A stretch of DNA of 64,000 nucleotides from a virus: the IMG/VR virus record IMGVR_UViG_3300025617_000013, positions 23,664-87,663 of that record, one strand, 5' to 3'. Shown here piece by piece: positions 35,366 through 51,197 of this stretch. How positions within the stretch are numbered: position 1 is the stretch's first letter; every line of letters begins with the position of its first letter. The notes below the pieces were generated by a model, which saw only the letters and a list, made by a program, of their open reading frames with translations, was not told the origin of the DNA and made no database searches. Both the position numbers and the translations under genes were made by a program.

Positions 35366-35373
35366 TATTTATA
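35366..35373 (+). promoter_or_regulatory. TATTTATA putative late promoter of the scaffold-capsid operon
   Basis: Directly after the terminator, 100 nt upstream of ATG 35466. Confidence 0.65.
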
Positions 35374-35465
35374 TACATAATATAACGTCCTATACGTTAT
35401 TAATAATTTTATAACTTCACATTACAGTTTACAGTAACTGTACGAAATCACAAAACATTATTTAA

Positions 35466-36698
35466 ATGGCAAACAAAGATTTACTTAAGCAAGCTATTGC
35501 TGAAGCCAAATCCGTACGTGAAGCCGCTATTGCTAACGCTAAAGAAGCTTTAGAAGAGACTTTAACTCCTCACCTAAAAGATATGTTAGCTGCTAAACTT
35601 CAAGAGATGGAAGATTCATCTGTAGAAGAAGAAGTAGTAAATGAATCTATAGAAGAAGAGATTGAAGAAACTGTAGAAGTAACTGAAGAAGAAACAGTAG
35701 AGGAAGAAGTACTAGAAGAGGTACCAGCAGCAGTAAAAGAAGCTGAGGATGACTCTGAAGAATCAGAGGACGAAGCTGAGGAAGAAATCGAAGAACCCGC
35801 TGAAGAAGAGGGTGAAGAAGAAACAGTTGAAGGTGACGAGGATCTTGGAGACTTAACAGTAGACCAGTTCAAAGATATGATCCGTGACATAATCGCTCAA
35901 GAACTTGACCACGATGGTGGTGAAGAAGAACTTGGTGCTGATATGGACGCTGGGGATATTGAAGGAATGGGAGATGAAGAGTCTATGGAAGAACCTATGG
36001 AACTTGATGCTGCTTCTGACGAAGAAGAGATCGACTTAGACGAACTTTTAAGAGAGTTAGACGAAGTAGATGAATACGGCTCTACTAGACAAAGAGACCG
36101 TGCTGATTCTGCTGCATCAGGTCTAGAGAACATTGTAAAAGGATTAACAGCTCTTTCTAAAAAAGCAGGTCCAGCCGCTAAAAAAGCATATGCTGCTTTA
36201 CAAGCTTTAGGAGCAGGAGCAGGTTATGCAATGCGTAACGAAGGAGACCAAGATGGAGACGATGAAGCTCTATCACCAGAGGAGTTAGCAAATAAACATG
36301 CTGGTTCTCCAATGAAAGAAGATAGAGATAATTCTGAATTATCAGAAGCGTTAGAGACTGTTGAAGCTCTACGTAAAGATCTTCAAGAAGTAAACCTTCT
36401 TAATTCTAAATTACTTTATGTGAACAAAATCTTCAAGGCTAATAGTCTTTCTGAATCACAAAAAGTAAATGTAATTGCTGCTTTTGATAAAGCAGAAACA
36501 GTAAAAGAAGTAAAATTAGTATTCGAAACAGTTTCTGAAAATGTAGCTACTCCTAAAAAGGAGAATGTAACTGAAGCTAAATTAGGCATGGCGTCTAAAG
36601 CAACAGGTACTACAGCAACAAAACCAGAAATCATTGCAGAAAATTCTGCAGTACATCGTATGCAAGTTTTAGCTGGTATTAAACCAAGACAATTTTAA
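35466..36698 (+). CDS. Prohead scaffolding protein (gp22-like position)
   Basis: Highly acidic coiled-coil protein between protease and capsid genes. Confidence 0.8.
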   Translation: MANKDLLKQAIAEAKSVREAAIANAKEALEETLTPHLKDMLAAKLQEMEDSSVEEEVVNESIEEEIEETVEVTEEETVEEEVLEEVPAAVKEAEDDSEESEDEAEEEIEEPAEEEGEEETVEGDEDLGDLTVDQFKDMIRDIIAQELDHDGGEEELGADMDAGDIEGMGDEESMEEPMELDAASDEEEIDLDELLRELDEVDEYGSTRQRDRADSAASGLENIVKGLTALSKKAGPAAKKAYAALQALGAGAGYAMRNEGDQDGDDEALSPEELANKHAGSPMKEDRDNSELSEALETVEALRKDLQEVNLLNSKLLYVNKIFKANSLSESQKVNVIAAFDKAETVKEVKLVFETVSENVATPKKENVTEAKLGMASKATGTTATKPEIIAENSAVHRMQVLAGIKPRQF

Positions 36699-44098: not shown

Positions 44099-44875
44099 AT
44101 GGCAATTTGGAAAAAAATACTTGTTAGTGGATCTAGCATTCATGTAAACGAAATAACAGCATCATCATTAACTAATAACAATCTTATTGTTGTTGGTTCA
44201 GGTGGAGCACTTGAGAACAGTGGACTAACCTTTGACGGTTCTGCAGTTACACTTACAGGTGCTAAATTAATTGTTCCAGGAGATATATCTGGAAGTGGAG
44301 ATTTAAAAATCTCTGGTAGTACAGTTATTGATACTAATTTAACAGTAGGAGGAACTTCAACATTTACTGGCGGAGTTCAATTATCTGGAGATTTAGATGT
44401 CGATGGTAATATAGCCGGTGATGGTAATTTAGATATAGCCGGTAACGGTAAAATTACTGGAAGTTTTGAAGTAGACGGTGCTTCTACTTTTAATAGTGAA
44501 GTAACAATTTCAGGAACTAACAATTTAAGAGTTGGTGGTGATATAATAGTAGATGGAGATTTTACCTACTTAAATACTGCTAACTTATTTGTAGAGGATA
44601 AATTTATTCTTTTAAATTCTGGTTCTGCTAATCCTGATGAAGGAGGTCTTATTATAGATGAAGGTAATGCAACAGGACATGCTTTTGTATATGATGCAGA
44701 CTCATCTAGATTTGCTTTTACAGGATCTTTAGATTCTACAGCTACTTCAGTAACACCAGATGCATTCGTTGCAGCAGTAGTACATGAAGGATCAGGACAT
44801 ACAGATGTACCGGAATACCAAAAAGCGGGTAACATCAAAGTAGATTCTTCTGACGAAATTTGGATTTACGTTTAA
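44099..44875 (+). CDS. Virion structural protein with beta-helix repeats
   Basis: 'GDL.V.G' repeats; N-terminus MAIWKKILVSGS matches MPNWKKLIVSGS of 45188. Confidence 0.6.
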   Translation: MAIWKKILVSGSSIHVNEITASSLTNNNLIVVGSGGALENSGLTFDGSAVTLTGAKLIVPGDISGSGDLKISGSTVIDTNLTVGGTSTFTGGVQLSGDLDVDGNIAGDGNLDIAGNGKITGSFEVDGASTFNSEVTISGTNNLRVGGDIIVDGDFTYLNTANLFVEDKFILLNSGSANPDEGGLIIDEGNATGHAFVYDADSSRFAFTGSLDSTATSVTPDAFVAAVVHEGSGHTDVPEYQKAGNIKVDSSDEIWIYV

Positions 44876-44894
44876 AATAGTATATAATATAGTT

Positions 44895-45086
44895 ATGGGA
44901 TTATTAGATAAAGGCAGAACTAAGCCTAGTAATACGGGTACGGAATTAACTCAAGCAGGTTTAACCAAAGAAGATTTTAAATTTATTCTTGCTAAATTAA
45001 GATTAGCAGATTATAAAGGAACAGAATTTGAAGCTTTTTACGCCGTATACACAAAAATACAAGATCATATAAATAATCAAAAATAA
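44895..45086 (+). CDS. Small hypothetical protein
   Basis: 63-aa ORF followed by a terminator. Confidence 0.55.
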   Translation: MGLLDKGRTKPSNTGTELTQAGLTKEDFKFILAKLRLADYKGTEFEAFYAVYTKIQDHINNQK

Positions 45087-45090
45087 GTAG

Positions 45091-45110
45091 AGGGGCTTTT
45101 AAGCCCTTTT
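45091..45110 (+). terminator. Probable rho-independent terminator
   Basis: GGGCT-TTTA-AGCCC hairpin followed by TTTT. Confidence 0.65.
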
Positions 45111-45112
45111 GC

Positions 45113-45120
45113 TATTTATA
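45113..45120 (+). promoter_or_regulatory. TATTTATA putative late promoter
   Basis: Between the terminator and the structured leader of 45188. Confidence 0.65.
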
Positions 45121-45180
45121 GGTATATTATAGGCCCGAAAGGGAAGTGGGCGGGAACGAACCCGTAACCTACCGTAATAG
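45121..45180 (+). ncRNA. Candidate structured cis-regulatory RNA (three-way junction), family unrecognised
   Basis: GC-rich island: TAGG/CCTA closing stem, CCC-GAAA-GGG and CGGG-AACGAA-CCCG hairpins, outer TATTA/TAATA pairing. Confidence 0.5.
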
Positions 45181-45187
45181 AGAAGAT

Positions 45188-47215
45188 ATGCCCAATTGGA
45201 AAAAACTGATAGTCAGTGGATCAGATGCGCACCTGAATTCACTTGACATTGCAACATTTATATCCGCTTCCAACTTTGAAGGTGGATTATTCAAAGGAGA
45301 TGGTTCACAACTCACAAACATCTCTGCCTCTTATTTATCAAACGAACTTACAGCCAGTATTTCTGGTGCATTTAATTCTGTTTCTCAATCTATTGCTTCT
45401 GATATAGAAGATATTGTAGATGGGACAACAACAGTAACATCCGCCTCTTACGCTTTAACAGCTTCTTATGCATTGAATGCAGGTGGAGGTACAGGAGTAG
45501 GCTTTCCTTTTAGCGGTTCAGCTATTATCACAGGATCTCTCTTAGTATCTAGTTCATTTGTAGACTTTACAAATGCTACCGTAATATCAGGCTCTATATT
45601 TAGTGGTTCTTTTGTAGGAGATGGTTCCGGTCTAACAGGATTAGCCGGAGATGTAGATACAGGTTCATTATTAACCACAGCTTCTGCAGCCGGTTCTACT
45701 ATTACTTTTGAAAAAGGTGATGGATCAACCTTTGACGTTTCTATAGCAGCTTCTGCTTCTTCAGCAGATGCACTAGTAACTGCTTCTATAGACGGCTCCA
45801 CTCTTACATTTGAAAAAGGAGATGCTTCTACTTTTGATATCATACTACCATCAGGAGGTAATGGATATTCTGGAGAGACTGCAACAGCAATACTCTCACA
45901 ATCAACAGCAGCTGAAACCTGGAGCTTTGCACACAACCTAAACGAAAGACATCCAGTTATTACAGTTTATGATGATAACGAAGATGTAATCGTACCGAAT
46001 ACTATTTCAGTAGTAGATGAGAATAATTTAGATATTATATTCTCTACTACTAGAACAGGTTATGCTACAGCAGTAGTTGTAGGAGTTAGTTCTTCTTTTG
46101 CTACTACAGCATCTTATATAGAATCTTTAAATGTTGACGGTCCATTAGGATTAGATAGTATAACTTCTGCTTCCTATGCATTAACTGCATCTTATGCTGA
46201 TGACTTTAACGCTAACAATATAACAGCTACATCATTTACAGGTTCTTTCTCAGGTTCTTTTTACGGAGACGGTTCTAACCTATCAGGAGTAACTTCTTAT
46301 ACAGATGTAGATACTTTAGAATATATTAACAGTATTGGAGTAGTATCAAGCTCTGCCCAGATTAATACAGGTTCTTTCTCTGGCTCTTTCTTTGGAGACG
46401 GTACAGGATTAACCGGACTTGGGTATGGAGATACTAAAAAACTATATCAAACAGTAGCAGCAACTACATGGTCGTTTAACCATAATATGGTCGAACAGTA
46501 TCCAACAGTTACTGTATACAACGATTTAAATGAAGTAGTACAGCCAACTAAAATAGTAGCGGTAGATTCTTCTTCTTTAGATATATACTTTGGAATACCG
46601 ACAGCAGGTACAGCGGTAGCTGTAGTAGGTGGTGTAGCAACCACCCAAGAAGCAGGGTATAATAGAGTATTAGAACAAACATTATCGGCCACTACTTGGT
46701 CATTTACCCATAACCTAGGGAATAAATACCCACAAGTATCGGTATATGATTCTAGTGATGAATTAATTATACCTGGTAAGTTAGAAGCAGTAGATCAGAA
46801 TAATTTAATTATATATTTTGATAACCCTCATGCAGGTACTGCAACCGCTACAGTAGGAGGAACATCTCTTACAGCGTCTTATGCCGATAGTTTAGTAATA
46901 AGTGATACACTTCTTACATATCAAGATAATACTGATGTAGATACAGGGACAGAGACTATAGCAACGGTATCAACTTCTACTTATGATGGTGCTTTTTTTG
47001 ATTATATTATTAAAGACGGAACTAACTTTAGAGCCGGTACTGTTTTATCAGTATGGGATGGTTCTTCAATAGAATATACAGAAACTTCAACTCAAGATAT
47101 AGGAAACACCACAGGTGTAACCATGTCAGTAGATATATCAGGAACTGATGCTAGACTAAGAGCAACCACAACATCAGATAATTGGAACATAAAAGCATTT
47201 GTAAGAGCATTATAG
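45188..47215 (+). CDS. Fibre-like structural protein with three 'W.F.HN....P...VY' domains
   Basis: ATG 45188 (MPNWKKLIVSGS) preferred over GTG 45146; SGS-rich repeats. Confidence 0.7.
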   Translation: MPNWKKLIVSGSDAHLNSLDIATFISASNFEGGLFKGDGSQLTNISASYLSNELTASISGAFNSVSQSIASDIEDIVDGTTTVTSASYALTASYALNAGGGTGVGFPFSGSAIITGSLLVSSSFVDFTNATVISGSIFSGSFVGDGSGLTGLAGDVDTGSLLTTASAAGSTITFEKGDGSTFDVSIAASASSADALVTASIDGSTLTFEKGDASTFDIILPSGGNGYSGETATAILSQSTAAETWSFAHNLNERHPVITVYDDNEDVIVPNTISVVDENNLDIIFSTTRTGYATAVVVGVSSSFATTASYIESLNVDGPLGLDSITSASYALTASYADDFNANNITATSFTGSFSGSFYGDGSNLSGVTSYTDVDTLEYINSIGVVSSSAQINTGSFSGSFFGDGTGLTGLGYGDTKKLYQTVAATTWSFNHNMVEQYPTVTVYNDLNEVVQPTKIVAVDSSSLDIYFGIPTAGTAVAVVGGVATTQEAGYNRVLEQTLSATTWSFTHNLGNKYPQVSVYDSSDELIIPGKLEAVDQNNLIIYFDNPHAGTATATVGGTSLTASYADSLVISDTLLTYQDNTDVDTGTETIATVSTSTYDGAFFDYIIKDGTNFRAGTVLSVWDGSSIEYTETSTQDIGNTTGVTMSVDISGTDARLRATTTSDNWNIKAFVRAL

Positions 47216-47216
47216 T

Positions 47217-50200
47217 ATGAAAATATTTGACCCAAAATTAACAGGAAGTATAGAAATCCTTAACACCATAAGCGGTAGTGTTGAAATACAACAAGATTTA
47301 ACAGTAGGGGGAACTATATTTGGAGATATAGAAGGAAGTATAGAGGGTACTGCAGCAACAGCTTCTTACGTAGAATTTAACAGTGTAGATGGATTATCTA
47401 CTTTTTCATCAAGTATTGAAGATAGAGTAACTTTACAAGAAGAATTTAGTTCTTCTTTAGACAGTACTTTTGCAACAGATACAGCAGTGGCAACTGCAGT
47501 TTTAAGCCTCAATGCTGCTACATCCTCATACCTACTTAACACCACAGATACGTTAGATGGGGATTTAACTGTGACAGGAACAATAACTGCTCAAGAATTT
47601 CATACAGAATATGTTAGTGCTTCTATTATTTATCAATCAGGATCAACACAGTTTGGAGATACTTCTGATGACACTCACATTTTTACCGGCAATATTGGTA
47701 TAGGCACGAATAGTCCTATACAAAAATTAGATGTAAATGGAAATATAGTTTCTAATTCATTTTATTTATATGATTCAACATCTAATGATAGAAACGTAAT
47801 GTTCCTTGACGGTTCAGATAATTTATTACTAGCAACAGGGACAAGTACTGGAGCAAGATCAATGCTTTTTTATACTGAAAACGCAGAACGTATGCGTATT
47901 GATTCTACGGGTAACGTAGGTATAGGAACGAGTAGTCCTGTAAGAAAACTTGATGTAAATAGTGGAGTTTCTTCTGATATAGTGAGGTTTGGAAATAATA
48001 GTGGAGCAATGACTTTTGGTCAAACACCTAATCAGTCAAGTCTTGACCTTGCTTCAAGCAACGTTTTTAGAATTAGACAAGGCTCTTCAATTCCATTTAT
48101 ATTAAGTTCAAGTGGTAATGTAGGTATCGGAACGACTAGTCCAGGTAGATTGCTTGAAGTTTATGGGGCTCTTGATGGTTATATTAAAGTCAATGGGGGC
48201 CGTTCTGGTAATCACGGTTTTACACTTGGTTCAGATGCATACGGTTTTATTATTTTTGACGATACATTAAGTAATTATAGATTTGTTATTGAACAAGACT
48301 CAGGCAACGTCGGGATCGGAACAGCTAATCCAAATGGAAAATTAGACGTGCAATCATCTAACACAGGAAATTTACTTTCTAGAGTTTACAACCCTAACAC
48401 CGGTGCTAGTTCTTCTGCTTCTTTTAGAATAGCTTCTGCCGCAAACAACGCAAACTCTGCTAGATTAGAATTTTCTGACGCTAGTTATTATACAGCTACA
48501 ATATCAGGAGATAGAGTTCAGGGGCTAGTTTTTAGAACATCAGCAACTGGGAGTAACCCCACTACGGTCCCTGAGAGAATGCGTATTGAATCAGATGGTA
48601 TAATTAGTATAGGTGAAGGTGCTACACAATCTTGGATAGCTAATAAAGTACAGACTACAACCACTGCAGTTTCAGGGAAGCAGGACATGTCTGACATAGA
48701 CAGAACCACAGCCAATTGGATGAGGATTACTAATCCTGTTTATTCAACAAATGGTTCTGTAGGTTTAATAATGCGTACTTTCCCAAATTCAGATGCAAGG
48801 CAGGGTGCTGGTATAATAGCTTCAGGAGGATCTGATAACGCGGCTACGGATTTAGATTTATTTGTTAGTCAACAAACATCTGGTGCTACAACGAGTACAT
48901 CATATTCTGCTCTATCGATAAAAGGTAACACAGGTAACGTAGGTATAGGTAACACAACACCTTCTGCTAACCTATATGTTTCCGGAGCAAATGGAGATGC
49001 GACTACTAAAGCAGAAATGCAATCAAACTCAGTATTTACTATAAAACCTTCTGCAACAAATTCTGGTAATTTAAATTTTGCTCAAGTAGATGGGGGTAAT
49101 TCAATAGGTATTCAATTTACAAACGGTGCAGGAACATCAGATTGGGATATAGCACTGAATCCATTTGGAGGTAACGTAGGTATAGGGGTAACTGCTCCAA
49201 GTGAGAAACTAGAAGTAGCAGGAAATGCTATTTTAGATGCCAGTAATGCTAGGTTGAAAATTAAAGGAGGTGTAACAGGAACTAATAGCGGTATAGATTG
49301 GACTTTTAATTCAGATTCAACACAGTATGCTAAAATAGAATTAGACTATGATACTAGAGCTACTACCGGACTATTGATAGATTCAGGATACCCGATGACC
49401 TTAGATTACAGTAGCGGTACTTTTAGTATTAAGAAAAATGGCTCAAGTGAGTTAACAATTCTAAATGGCAACGTAGGTATCGGAACGACTAGTCCGGGCT
49501 ATAAACTTGAGATAGATGGCACCCTTAAATCTACAGGTTGGGGTTATTTAGCCACTACGGGAGCTACAAGTATTGTAAATATTGGAAGCTCTAATGCAGC
49601 AGTGACGCAATTAAATCTCTCAACTTCGTCTTCGGGAGGCAGCACGGTAGCTGCTACAAATTCATTATCAATAAGCGTAAATAATACGACAGCAGCAAAA
49701 ATCCTGTCAAACGGAAATATAGGCATCGGAACGACTAGTCCTTCTGAAGCGCTGCACATATATCGCAATGCAGCATCTGCTGAGATAAGACTTCAGAACA
49801 ACAATATTAGCTCCTACATAAGAAGTAATACAGACAATTTAAACTTCTATGTATTTAATGGGGAGAAGATGCGTATCACCTTAGGTGGCAACGTAGGTAT
49901 AGGTACTACAAGCCCAAATTGCATGCTGGACGTTCAAGGGAACTCATCTTTTGGTTCTATAAAAAGCCTACAAGGAACATACCACCAGCCTAATAAGTGG
50001 CAAAAAGTTATAAGTTTTACTTATTCTGCATTTAGTTTTGATTCGTTTACTTTGATTGTTAATGAGGGAGGAGATACAGGTAATTACAATTCAAATGCTG
50101 AAGTATACATACATTATAAGTTCCAAAATAATAACGGTAGAATAGTAGCAAACATAATTAATTATGGAGATAAACCTATACTAGCTGAAAACTTTGAAAT

Positions 50201-51197
50201 TTATAAAACCGGTACAACTAACGGTACAATCACTATCTACCATAAGATGGTAAGGAATTACCAAACACCAAGTTACACACTTTTAGGACCTACAGTTAAT
50301 ATAGATTATACCTGGCACGGTACAGTAGTCGGTGATGACTTATCATCAGAAACAAACGACCCTTGGTTTATAAAAGATATTACAAACGGGTTAACCATCA
50401 ATGGAAGATCTGGTAATGTAGGTATAGGAAAAACTAGTCCTTCCTATAAACTTGATATAGATGGAGGATCATCAGTTCCACTACAGGTAAATTCTACTCA
50501 AGATTATATGATAGGTTTATCTAGATCTGGGGTATCTCAATGGTGGTTAAAAGCTTATACTAATGGAGCATTTGCTCTACATGAAAACGGAGTTGGTGAT
50601 CAAATATATATTCCAGGTGGCGGTAACGTAGGTATAGGTACAACAGCACCTGGTGAAAAACTTGATGTCAACGGGGCTGTACAAGCTGTAGCATATAAAG
50701 CTACAGGAGGAGGAACTTCCACTTTCGGTACGATGACTAAGGTATATCAAGATCTACATAAAAGATCTTTTGTTACAACTCATAATTTTACTTATGCTGG
50801 GACAGGTACATATTACTTTAACTTAGCTTTCCCAGCTTCCGGTACTATCGGATTTAACTTAAAGATTGTTACCAGTAGAAATGGTAACTGGAGAAATTTT
50901 GGATATATCGATCATCAAGGTTTCGTATATTGGGAAACAGATGGTGATTTTGTACACGAAGCAGGGGTAACCTCAATAGCATCAAGTCATGGAGGAGGTA
51001 TTACAGTAGGTAATCCGACTGGCTTTGGAGCTAATAGTATCTCAGCTTCAACCCCCGGCTCCCTTAATTACAACTACATGATCGTTAGATTTCCTATATA
51101 CTTCCCAGACGGTACCACCGGATCAGATGGATTCTGGAAAGTTCATTTAGATACTTATGGATACACCGGAGATACAGCATACTTCTTAAAAGCATAA
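47217..51197 (+). CDS. Tail fibre protein 1 (GNVGIGTTSP repeats)
   Basis: Shared 'TTDTLDGDLTVTGTITAQEFHTE...GSTQFG' anchor plus about 11 GNVGIG repeats. Confidence 0.8.
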   Translation: MKIFDPKLTGSIEILNTISGSVEIQQDLTVGGTIFGDIEGSIEGTAATASYVEFNSVDGLSTFSSSIEDRVTLQEEFSSSLDSTFATDTAVATAVLSLNAATSSYLLNTTDTLDGDLTVTGTITAQEFHTEYVSASIIYQSGSTQFGDTSDDTHIFTGNIGIGTNSPIQKLDVNGNIVSNSFYLYDSTSNDRNVMFLDGSDNLLLATGTSTGARSMLFYTENAERMRIDSTGNVGIGTSSPVRKLDVNSGVSSDIVRFGNNSGAMTFGQTPNQSSLDLASSNVFRIRQGSSIPFILSSSGNVGIGTTSPGRLLEVYGALDGYIKVNGGRSGNHGFTLGSDAYGFIIFDDTLSNYRFVIEQDSGNVGIGTANPNGKLDVQSSNTGNLLSRVYNPNTGASSSASFRIASAANNANSARLEFSDASYYTATISGDRVQGLVFRTSATGSNPTTVPERMRIESDGIISIGEGATQSWIANKVQTTTTAVSGKQDMSDIDRTTANWMRITNPVYSTNGSVGLIMRTFPNSDARQGAGIIASGGSDNAATDLDLFVSQQTSGATTSTSYSALSIKGNTGNVGIGNTTPSANLYVSGANGDATTKAEMQSNSVFTIKPSATNSGNLNFAQVDGGNSIGIQFTNGAGTSDWDIALNPFGGNVGIGVTAPSEKLEVAGNAILDASNARLKIKGGVTGTNSGIDWTFNSDSTQYAKIELDYDTRATTGLLIDSGYPMTLDYSSGTFSIKKNGSSELTILNGNVGIGTTSPGYKLEIDGTLKSTGWGYLATTGATSIVNIGSSNAAVTQLNLSTSSSGGSTVAATNSLSISVNNTTAAKILSNGNIGIGTTSPSEALHIYRNAASAEIRLQNNNISSYIRSNTDNLNFYVFNGEKMRITLGGNVGIGTTSPNCMLDVQGNSSFGSIKSLQGTYHQPNKWQKVISFTYSAFSFDSFTLIVNEGGDTGNYNSNAEVYIHYKFQNNNGRIVANIINYGDKPILAENFEIYKTGTTNGTITIYHKMVRNYQTPSYTLLGPTVNIDYTWHGTVVGDDLSSETNDPWFIKDITNGLTINGRSGNVGIGKTSPSYKLDIDGGSSVPLQVNSTQDYMIGLSRSGVSQWWLKAYTNGAFALHENGVGDQIYIPGGGNVGIGTTAPGEKLDVNGAVQAVAYKATGGGTSTFGTMTKVYQDLHKRSFVTTHNFTYAGTGTYYFNLAFPASGTIGFNLKIVTSRNGNWRNFGYIDHQGFVYWETDGDFVHEAGVTSIASSHGGGITVGNPTGFGANSISASTPGSLNYNYMIVRFPIYFPDGTTGSDGFWKVHLDTYGYTGDTAYFLKA

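Follow-up and report, generated by a model that had tools for sequence, protein, structure and literature searches.

Tail fibres determine which bacteria a phage infects. In the window analysed here, the whole stretch of 64,000 nucleotides taken from an IMG/VR virus record, a short GC-rich island lies directly before a fibre-like gene. This raises the question whether the island encodes a functional RNA, how such an RNA folds and what it may do for the gene behind it. A preliminary description, made from the letters alone, had proposed a three-way-junction RNA serving as a novel cis-regulatory element or protein-binding operator for fibre expression. We found that positions 45126-45178 of the plus strand encode a conserved three-helix RNA of 53 nt, located on the mRNA strand. 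The virus record measures 87.7 kb, is about 53% complete and contains the element once; its nearest cultured relative is the Flavobacterium phage vB_FspM_immuto (immuto in the following).

The leader and its distribution

The island reaches a G+C content of 61% (45130-45175) against 35% over the window, in agreement with the earlier impression of a GC-rich island in an AT-rich genome. On the plus strand a small gene is followed by a terminator-like hairpin, by the box TATTTATA, by the element and finally by the start codon of the fibre-like gene, with 9 nt between the 3' end of the element and this ATG (Table 1). The hairpin and the box had both been recognised correctly before. A simple terminator scan missed the hairpin; in many relatives, hairpins of different sequence occupy the equivalent site upstream of the element. 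In a contig of a related marine phage, position 44879 is joined straight to 45125, with the small gene and the terminator absent and the RNA element kept; this joint was seen in one metatranscriptome contig, which matches at less than 95% identity.

Table 1. Coordinates of the leader, its helices and the neighbouring features in the window
Feature	Position	Strand	Description
Small gene, 63 aa	44895..45086	+	conserved family; predicted helical hairpin
Terminator-like hairpin	45086..45113	+	-17.4 kcal/mol; ends the upstream transcription unit
TATTTATA box	45113..45120	+	late-promoter-like motif
P1, 5' strand	45126..45133	+	AUUAU 45126-30, bulged A 45131, GG 45132-33; partner 45172-45178
P2 hairpin CCC-GAAA-GGG	45134..45143	+	third pair covaries: CG 41, UA 17, UG 5 (alignment A5)
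J2/3, AAG	45144..45146	+	near-invariant or invariant; column entropy 0-0.08 bits in 98 sequences
P3	45147..45170	+	P3a UGG 45147-49 / CC(U) 45168-70; G45150-U45165; stem 45151-54/45161-64
J3/1, single A	45171..45171	+	invariant; column entropy 0
P1, 3' strand	45172..45178	+	CC 45172-73, GUAAU 45174-78
A-rich spacer before the start codon	45179..45187	+	mostly unpaired
Fibre-like/virion gene	45188..47215	+	675 aa, starts MPNWKKLIVSGSDA; phrog_16122 (virion structural protein), phrog_21918

Folded alone, the element of the window beats shuffled sequences by a modest margin only (z = -2.05; an equally stable fold in 7 of 200 shuffles), so that the single sequence proves little. Its minimum free energy (MFE) structure differs from the fold drawn in the preliminary description. 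The consensus fold lies 0.5 kcal/mol above the MFE in the window, where both the earlier and the revised register of pairing are able to form. Across relatives it lies about 1 kcal/mol (median) above the MFE, which indicates a marginally stable structure. We rejected a pairing in the window's own MFE structure that joins GGUAUAUU (45121-28) with GAUAUGCC over the start codon; it is specific to the window and not kept in relatives. The support for a non-chance fold is comparative: the element recurs, with compensatory changes, in over 200 distinct contigs of phages.

Copies of the element are present in over 200 distinct IMG/VR phage contigs, in one contig of a metagenome-assembled genome (MAG) and in the cultured phage immuto, always in mRNA sense and matching the orientation of the gene. 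The same architecture was seen in 44 unique leaders beside homologues of the fibre gene. When IMG/VR was searched with a DNA pattern describing the RNA only, at least 120 stretches were retrieved. About 95 of the matches listed were true copies, and in each of these a start of the type MP(N/S)WKK followed within 12-23 nt after the ACCAACC box. A second subtype, in which P3 is longer (GGAAGUAG...CUAACC), accounts for at least 79 further unique IMG/VR sequences. Five genomes of 160-187 kb, complete or nearly so, each contain the element exactly once.

The link to the gene is equally clear from the gene side. Searching for the gene and ignoring the RNA, we found the core within 110 nt of 97 out of 103 unique gene starts; the other six comprise two variant cores and four starts with an insert of about 110 nt before the ATG. 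All 103 starts of the MP(N/S)WKK type thus carry the element or a variant, four of them probably behind an insert. Across contigs from 185,579 prokaryote species, the type-1 pattern gave a single match, on a phage-like MAG contig of 7.9 kb with the same gene behind the element. In immuto, the covariance model places the element at MW353175.1 137,891-137,947, where it precedes a 'putative tail fiber-like protein' starting with MPSWKK. Searches with blastn and tblastn, using the element of the window and the N-terminus against 50,697 phage records, had yielded nothing; since the covariance model later found the copy in immuto, we attribute these blanks to limits of sensitivity.

Downstream of the element there are at least 19 kb of fibre genes on the same strand, and the gene directly following the fibre-like gene (47217-51197) encodes a tail fibre. 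The proteins behind conserved leaders are down to about 25-30% identical in their best matching segment. A gene located two upstream (44099-44875) starts with MAIWK, a paralogous N-terminus of the MAxWKK type that is also present in relatives. This gene has TATTTATA 24 nt upstream and carries no structured leader; the RNA is thus confined to the MP(N/S)WKK paralogue.

Fold and covariation

The motifs assigned in the preliminary description were all read and placed exactly (TAGG 45130-33, CCTA 45168-71, CCC-GAAA-GGG 45134-43, AAGTGGG 45144-50 and CGGG-AACGAA-CCCG 45151-64). The proposed three-way junction held with respect to P2, P3 and the outer part of P1, while the inner part of P1 and the linker had to be redrawn. 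We compared the registers on a MAFFT alignment of 40 sequences. The inner helix TAGG/CCTA forms in the window, and its second pair is non-standard in 14 of the 40 relatives; the conserved register joins GG 45132-33 with CC 45172-73 instead. On the same alignment the alternative register has 98.5% of its cells paired. Nor is AAGTGGG a linker over its whole length, as its UGG pairs with the CC(U) strand to form P3a. A further register, 'Y' (GUGGG/CCUAC with an extended P3), was also rejected: it forms in the window and gives a G-A mismatch in most relatives.

The consensus of P1 reads AUUAU-x-GG with CC-R-UAAU, and compensatory changes occur in six of its seven pairs (alignment A5). In immuto, GA/UC replaces the near-invariant GG/CC, a change that fits the revised register and not the earlier one. 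P2 is a stub of 2-4 bp with a stable tetraloop, stacked directly on P1. Its loop is mostly of the GNRA type, as had been proposed from the window, and UUCG, UCAC and UAAU are found as well. P3a ends in a U-U pair in the window, where the consensus is UGG/CCA; its middle pair is AU in 65 sequences, GC in 33 and unpaired in none. The variable stem of P3, with a C-G pair at its base, shows up to five pair types per position. The P3 loop (45155-60 in the window) is free to vary in length and sequence, and an AA bulge (45166-67) leads back to P3a. Overall, about 20 nucleotides of the junction are invariant or near-invariant, and the helix ends and loops vary freely. The second bulge nucleotide (45167; column 83 of alignment A5) covaries with the middle pair of P3a (45148/45169; columns 40/85), with A accompanying G-C and U accompanying A-U. 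This could be a base triple or merely the split between two subfamilies.

In covariance-model alignments of 98 distinct sequences, 98.1-98.3% of the cells were paired and compensatory changes occurred in 10-12 of the 17 pairs. The covariation score was 0.29-0.39, compared with 0.12-0.17 in shuffles, and none of 500 shuffles reached the observed value. When the partners were slid by 1-3 columns, the paired cells dropped to 22-53% and the covariation score collapsed. These alignments were fitted to the covariance model and hence lean towards it. Three checks are free of this bias, namely RNAalifold, mutual information and a search for GUAG variants. RNAalifold independently yielded the consensus fold with an additional G-U/A-U pair beside the basal C-G pair of the variable stem, and a mutual-information scan blind to structure ranked the consensus pairs at the top. 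In the search with the GGAAGUAG pattern (the GUAG variants), the partner was left unconstrained. Every true copy among the 79 unique matches listed had a U at the predicted partner, which means that the G-C pair of P3a becomes A-U; the sequence was CUAACC in all of these true copies except one (CUAAUC). Moreover, G-U pairs are present at two positions of the element, so that only the strand in mRNA sense can fold.

A switch helix GCCC/GGGC, mutually exclusive with P2, had also been suggested. It is able to form since its letters are conserved, and it shows no covariation: shuffles were as good in 107 of 500 cases by paired cells and in 63 of 500 by score.

One may also ask whether the fold has arisen by chance, or whether the region is an N-terminal extension translated from GTG 45146. 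The modest z-score of the single sequence would agree with this, and in the window the GTG is indeed in frame. However, it is in frame in this window only. An in-frame stop lying between P1 and the ATG is found in 158 of 163 relatives, the length of P3 varies out of frame, substitutions follow base pairing and there are hundreds of covarying homologues. Covariation and in-frame stops refute this reading, to which we assign practically no probability. The conservation and covariation in related phages, on which the proposal of a structured leader had been made to depend, are very strong, and we are nearly certain that the element is a real, selected RNA structure.

Comparison with known RNA families

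At the gathering score, none of the 4,227 covariance models of Rfam 15 matched in the whole window. Relaxing the threshold to E<=10 in the region 44900-45400 gave matches on the upstream terminator region only and none on the element. Five other instances, including immuto, gave none on the element at E<=1. With ARAGORN, no tRNA or tmRNA genes were detected in the window. Since no Rfam 15 family matches, the earlier proposal of a novel structured leader RNA of the fibre gene stands; the leader is conserved, covarying and untranslated. Judged by these sequence comparisons, we class the element as a putative new family of structured mRNA leaders that act in cis. It probably represents a previously undescribed means of controlling a host-range gene.

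A catalogue from 2023 contains 8,495 unnamed candidate csRNAs ('DNAVirus_X') from intergenic regions of IMG/VR (PMC10690425). It gives numbers without functions, and its text makes no mention of tail, Flavobacter or three-way (PMC10690425). The data source is the same, as is the kind of object, a short covarying intergenic RNA beside a phage gene, and our motif with its more than 200 IMG/VR instances could well be among these entries (PMC10690425). The gene-specific linkage, the revised fold and the instance in a cultured phage come from the present analysis. A search of papers for the literal sequence of the element retrieved, among the matches listed, unrelated primers only and no phage or RNA paper.

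With the purine and c-di-GMP-I aptamers and the hammerhead, the element shares three helices, a highly conserved junction, a short helix capped by a GNRA loop and a size in the range of 55-90 nt, and members of these families occur in phages. The differences lie in the contacts. The loops of our element are not conserved, which leaves no loop-loop or tetraloop-receptor contact of the kind made in purine and c-di-GMP-I aptamers, and neither family gave an Rfam match. The junction strands measure 0 nt, AAG and A, that is 0, 3 and 1 nt, in contrast to the long conserved strands of the three families. The hammerhead box CUGANGA is absent from all aligned sequences and no Rfam hammerhead model matched.

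A riboswitch of a new kind is unlikely. Here, a metabolite, ion or nucleotide signal would bind the junction of a small aptamer and stabilise the weak, A-U-rich P1, and this would alter the access of ribosomes to the A-rich start region 7-17 nt downstream, an access of importance in a host whose initiation does not use a Shine-Dalgarno sequence. Such a device would be in line with the invariant core, the covarying stems and the variable loops, with a bulged P1 rich in A-U and G-U pairs in a fold so close to the MFE, and with the direct contact of the element to the translation start region. As no Rfam class matches, it would have to represent a new class. However, we found no conserved alternative helix or expression platform. 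There is no terminator either: no U tract follows the element, and the A-rich spacer runs into the ATG. The controlled gene is structural and has no metabolic link, and inserts of 110-730 nt before the AUG are tolerated. Furthermore, the type-1 pattern is absent from cells (185,579 species), whereas most riboswitch classes occur in cells.

A self-cleaving ribozyme or an RNase processing signal, which would shorten the fibre mRNA at its 5' end (leaving, for instance, a 5'-OH) and thereby alter its stability, appears quite unlikely. Its size of about 55 nt, the conserved junction core, stems capped by GNRA or UUCG loops and the phage context all agree with it, and the position at the 5' end is kept when ORFs are inserted behind the element. 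On the other hand, only about four unpaired nucleotides (AAG and A) are strictly conserved, which is little compared with the cores of hammerhead, twister, pistol and hatchet. The CUGANGA box is missing, and no Rfam ribozyme model matched at E<=10. An invariant junction with free stems and loops is equally typical of small riboswitches and of self-cleaving ribozymes. That the junction represents a new functional class, either a riboswitch or ribozyme or an IRES-like device recruiting ribosomes in hosts with non-Shine-Dalgarno initiation, is a possibility we entertain with considerable doubt.

Leaders that bind proteins include the three-way-junction mimics recognised by S15, the leader pseudoknot of T4 gene 32 and the com/mom operator of Mu. 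Like these, our element is a compact structured RNA just upstream of an unstructured start region. By analogy, its conserved junction, the G-U pair beside a C-G pair and its place before a phage late gene may point to a similar post-transcriptional control. Unlike in those systems, the gene encodes a fibre protein and not an RNA-binding protein able to regulate itself. Neither sequence nor covariance-model similarity to the leaders in Rfam was detected. A search of the record, which is about 53% complete, revealed neither RegA (PF01818) nor the cold-shock domain (PF00313), and the RegA control matched nowhere.

Position on the transcript and possible roles

The box TATTTATA is found 18 times on the plus strand of the window and twice on the minus strand. 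Twelve copies stand 14-31 nt before the ATG of an ORF of the structural module, and the genes identified behind the box include those for the portal, the head-tail adaptor and a PhoH-like protein. The 18 plus-strand sites span 10120-62012 (e.g. 29548, 40133, 44067, 51200, 57614 and 62005). From its sequence context, the box probably represents the motif of late promoters in this clade of phages; as such it would give most late genes very short leaders. In 176 of 197 motif instances, TATTTAT is present in the 70 nt upstream, and its distance to P1 is mostly 3-12 nt. The distance of 67 nt between box and ATG of the gene at 45188 is exceeded only by one other unit (35366, 92 nt), and the extra leader length at 45188 is the element. 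In this other unit (35366-35466), the 92 nt lie between TATTTATA and the ATG of gene 35466-36698; two hairpins are predicted there, with a z-score of only -1.7.

On the other side of the element, the spacer to the start codon measures 7-17 nt in nearly all of 197 instances and consists of 56% A and 5% C. The mean unpaired probability predicted for the start region is 0.66-0.74. When the leader was folded with 48 coding nucleotides attached, no conserved helix to the start region emerged across 93 sequences. A metatranscriptome run with exact contigs at 44238-44499 and 44710-44958 contained none over the leader; such contigs cannot show transcription starts.

We tentatively favour the view, with a confidence just short of even, that the element is a docking module: a trans-acting factor would bind its invariant junction and set the output of the fibre operon. 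Going by the spacing, the element would lie at the very 5' end of the late mRNA of the fibre operon and act in cis. Its junction may dock a conserved trans-acting macromolecule, such as a phage protein, the host ribosome or an RNase, and binding would set the translated or surviving amount of one late transcript. In this way, dosage or timing of the fibre anchor could be uncoupled from the other late genes with the same type of promoter, whose leaders would be too short for such an element. This view is supported by the invariant junction with its free tips, by the restriction to one gene and by the fixed position between box (3-12 nt) and start (7-17 nt). The lack of a conserved helix to the start region, the start region predicted to be open and the GCCC/GGGC helix without covariation argue against a classical switch.

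Could any stable structure at the 5' end serve the same purpose? As a passive stabiliser or insulator, the element would block decay that depends on the 5' end and would need no specific partner. P1 begins only few nucleotides from the presumed transcription start, and the element keeps its 5' position where ORFs have been inserted behind it, both of which would suit such a role. This explanation is improbable, as it does not account for some 20 invariant or near-invariant nucleotides ahead of proteins that have diverged so far, nor for the confinement of the element to one out of at least 13 late units.

The put RNA of phage HK022 is a cis-acting antiterminator of about 60-70 nt that forms two stem-loops, acts on RNA polymerase and belongs to early promoters. 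Our element is likewise encoded by a phage, proximal to a promoter if TATTTATA is a real one (3-12 nt after the box in most instances), cis-acting and at the head of a long operon, a mode of action that needs no adjacency to a start codon. It differs in that it is a three-way junction and not two tandem stem-loops, follows a promoter of late type, lies directly before an AUG and has no evident terminators downstream. Were it to act on RNA polymerase as put does, it would render transcription of the long fibre operon processive and resistant to termination. The location directly after a promoter-like box, the at least 19 kb of fibre genes that it heads and its occurrence as a single copy acting in cis only would fit. 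Nevertheless, we regard this as decidedly improbable: the downstream terminators are unconvincing (12 weak matches against 8.4 +/- 3.3 expected), the later fibre genes have TATTTATA boxes of their own and the architecture is a different one.

Natural inserts between the element and the fibre start, ranging from 110 to 730 nt, bear on all of these models. In one relative (L128), a GIY-YIG gene of 241 aa lies between the two, and the fibre gene starts with TTG behind an AAGGAG-like sequence. In another (L089), an HNH gene of 81 aa is found there, and the first three codons (MPN) now belong to this endonuclease. In both, the homing-endonuclease gene sits exactly at the junction of leader and start codon. 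Inserts of about 110 nt between the element and the fibre AUG occur in five lineages. Four leaders (L140, L333, L336 and L400) have a conserved insert of about 110 nt before the ATG with possible hairpins of its own, and for L140 we located the element on the upstream side of this insert. Another, different insert of about 120 nt (L007:2887-3000) ends in a GGAGG-like sequence. Judged by the order of these parts, the element appears to keep its position at the head of the transcript even when displaced from the start codon. The inserts argue against a mechanism that needs the element near the start codon and weaken pure occlusion of the start site, whereas models based on stability, processing or a polymerase-directed, put-like action stay alive.

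The exact insertion of homing endonuclease genes at this site, as well as the border that the conserved leader and the N-terminal codons form with a very variable gene body, might be taken for signs of an element acting at the DNA level, for example a recombination joint of the fibre cassette, a target of a homing endonuclease or a signal of a single-strand origin. We consider this very improbable. Compensatory changes preserve the pairing, as do G-U pairs possible on one strand only, the position is fixed with respect to box and AUG, and the orientation always follows the gene.

As to a possible partner of the docking module, the 63-aa protein encoded upstream was considered and rejected. For 190 of 202 motif instances, a homologue of its gene lies no more than 350 nt upstream. 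Synteny is weak evidence, the protein has no recognisable RNA-binding fold and the hairpin model is non-diagnostic. It matched no family in Pfam or PHROG; in the AlphaFold2 model (pLDDT 76), two helices form a hairpin behind a disordered N-terminus. The core pattern of the family is L(S/T)xxELxF(I/L)...KG...KL. In immuto, immuto26A_218 agrees in position and size and has the pattern LxxEE...KG...KL, a likeness judged by eye.

With its 53 nt, a fold supported by covariation and a cultured pair of phage and host (vB_FspM_immuto and Flavobacterium sp. LMO8), the motif is directly testable. Bacteroidota initiate translation without the classical Shine-Dalgarno mechanism, and few of their cis-regulatory RNAs are understood. 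The element could hence inform how structured leaders function in these bacteria. If the junction does represent a new functional class, synthesis of the first receptor-binding fibre would be conditional in a large clade of aquatic Flavobacteriia myophages, the condition being a cellular signal or the state of the translation machinery. Overall, the restriction of a conserved RNA to a single fibre gene, seen in hundreds of Flavobacteriia phages from marine and fresh waters, implies an undescribed post-transcriptional control of host range.
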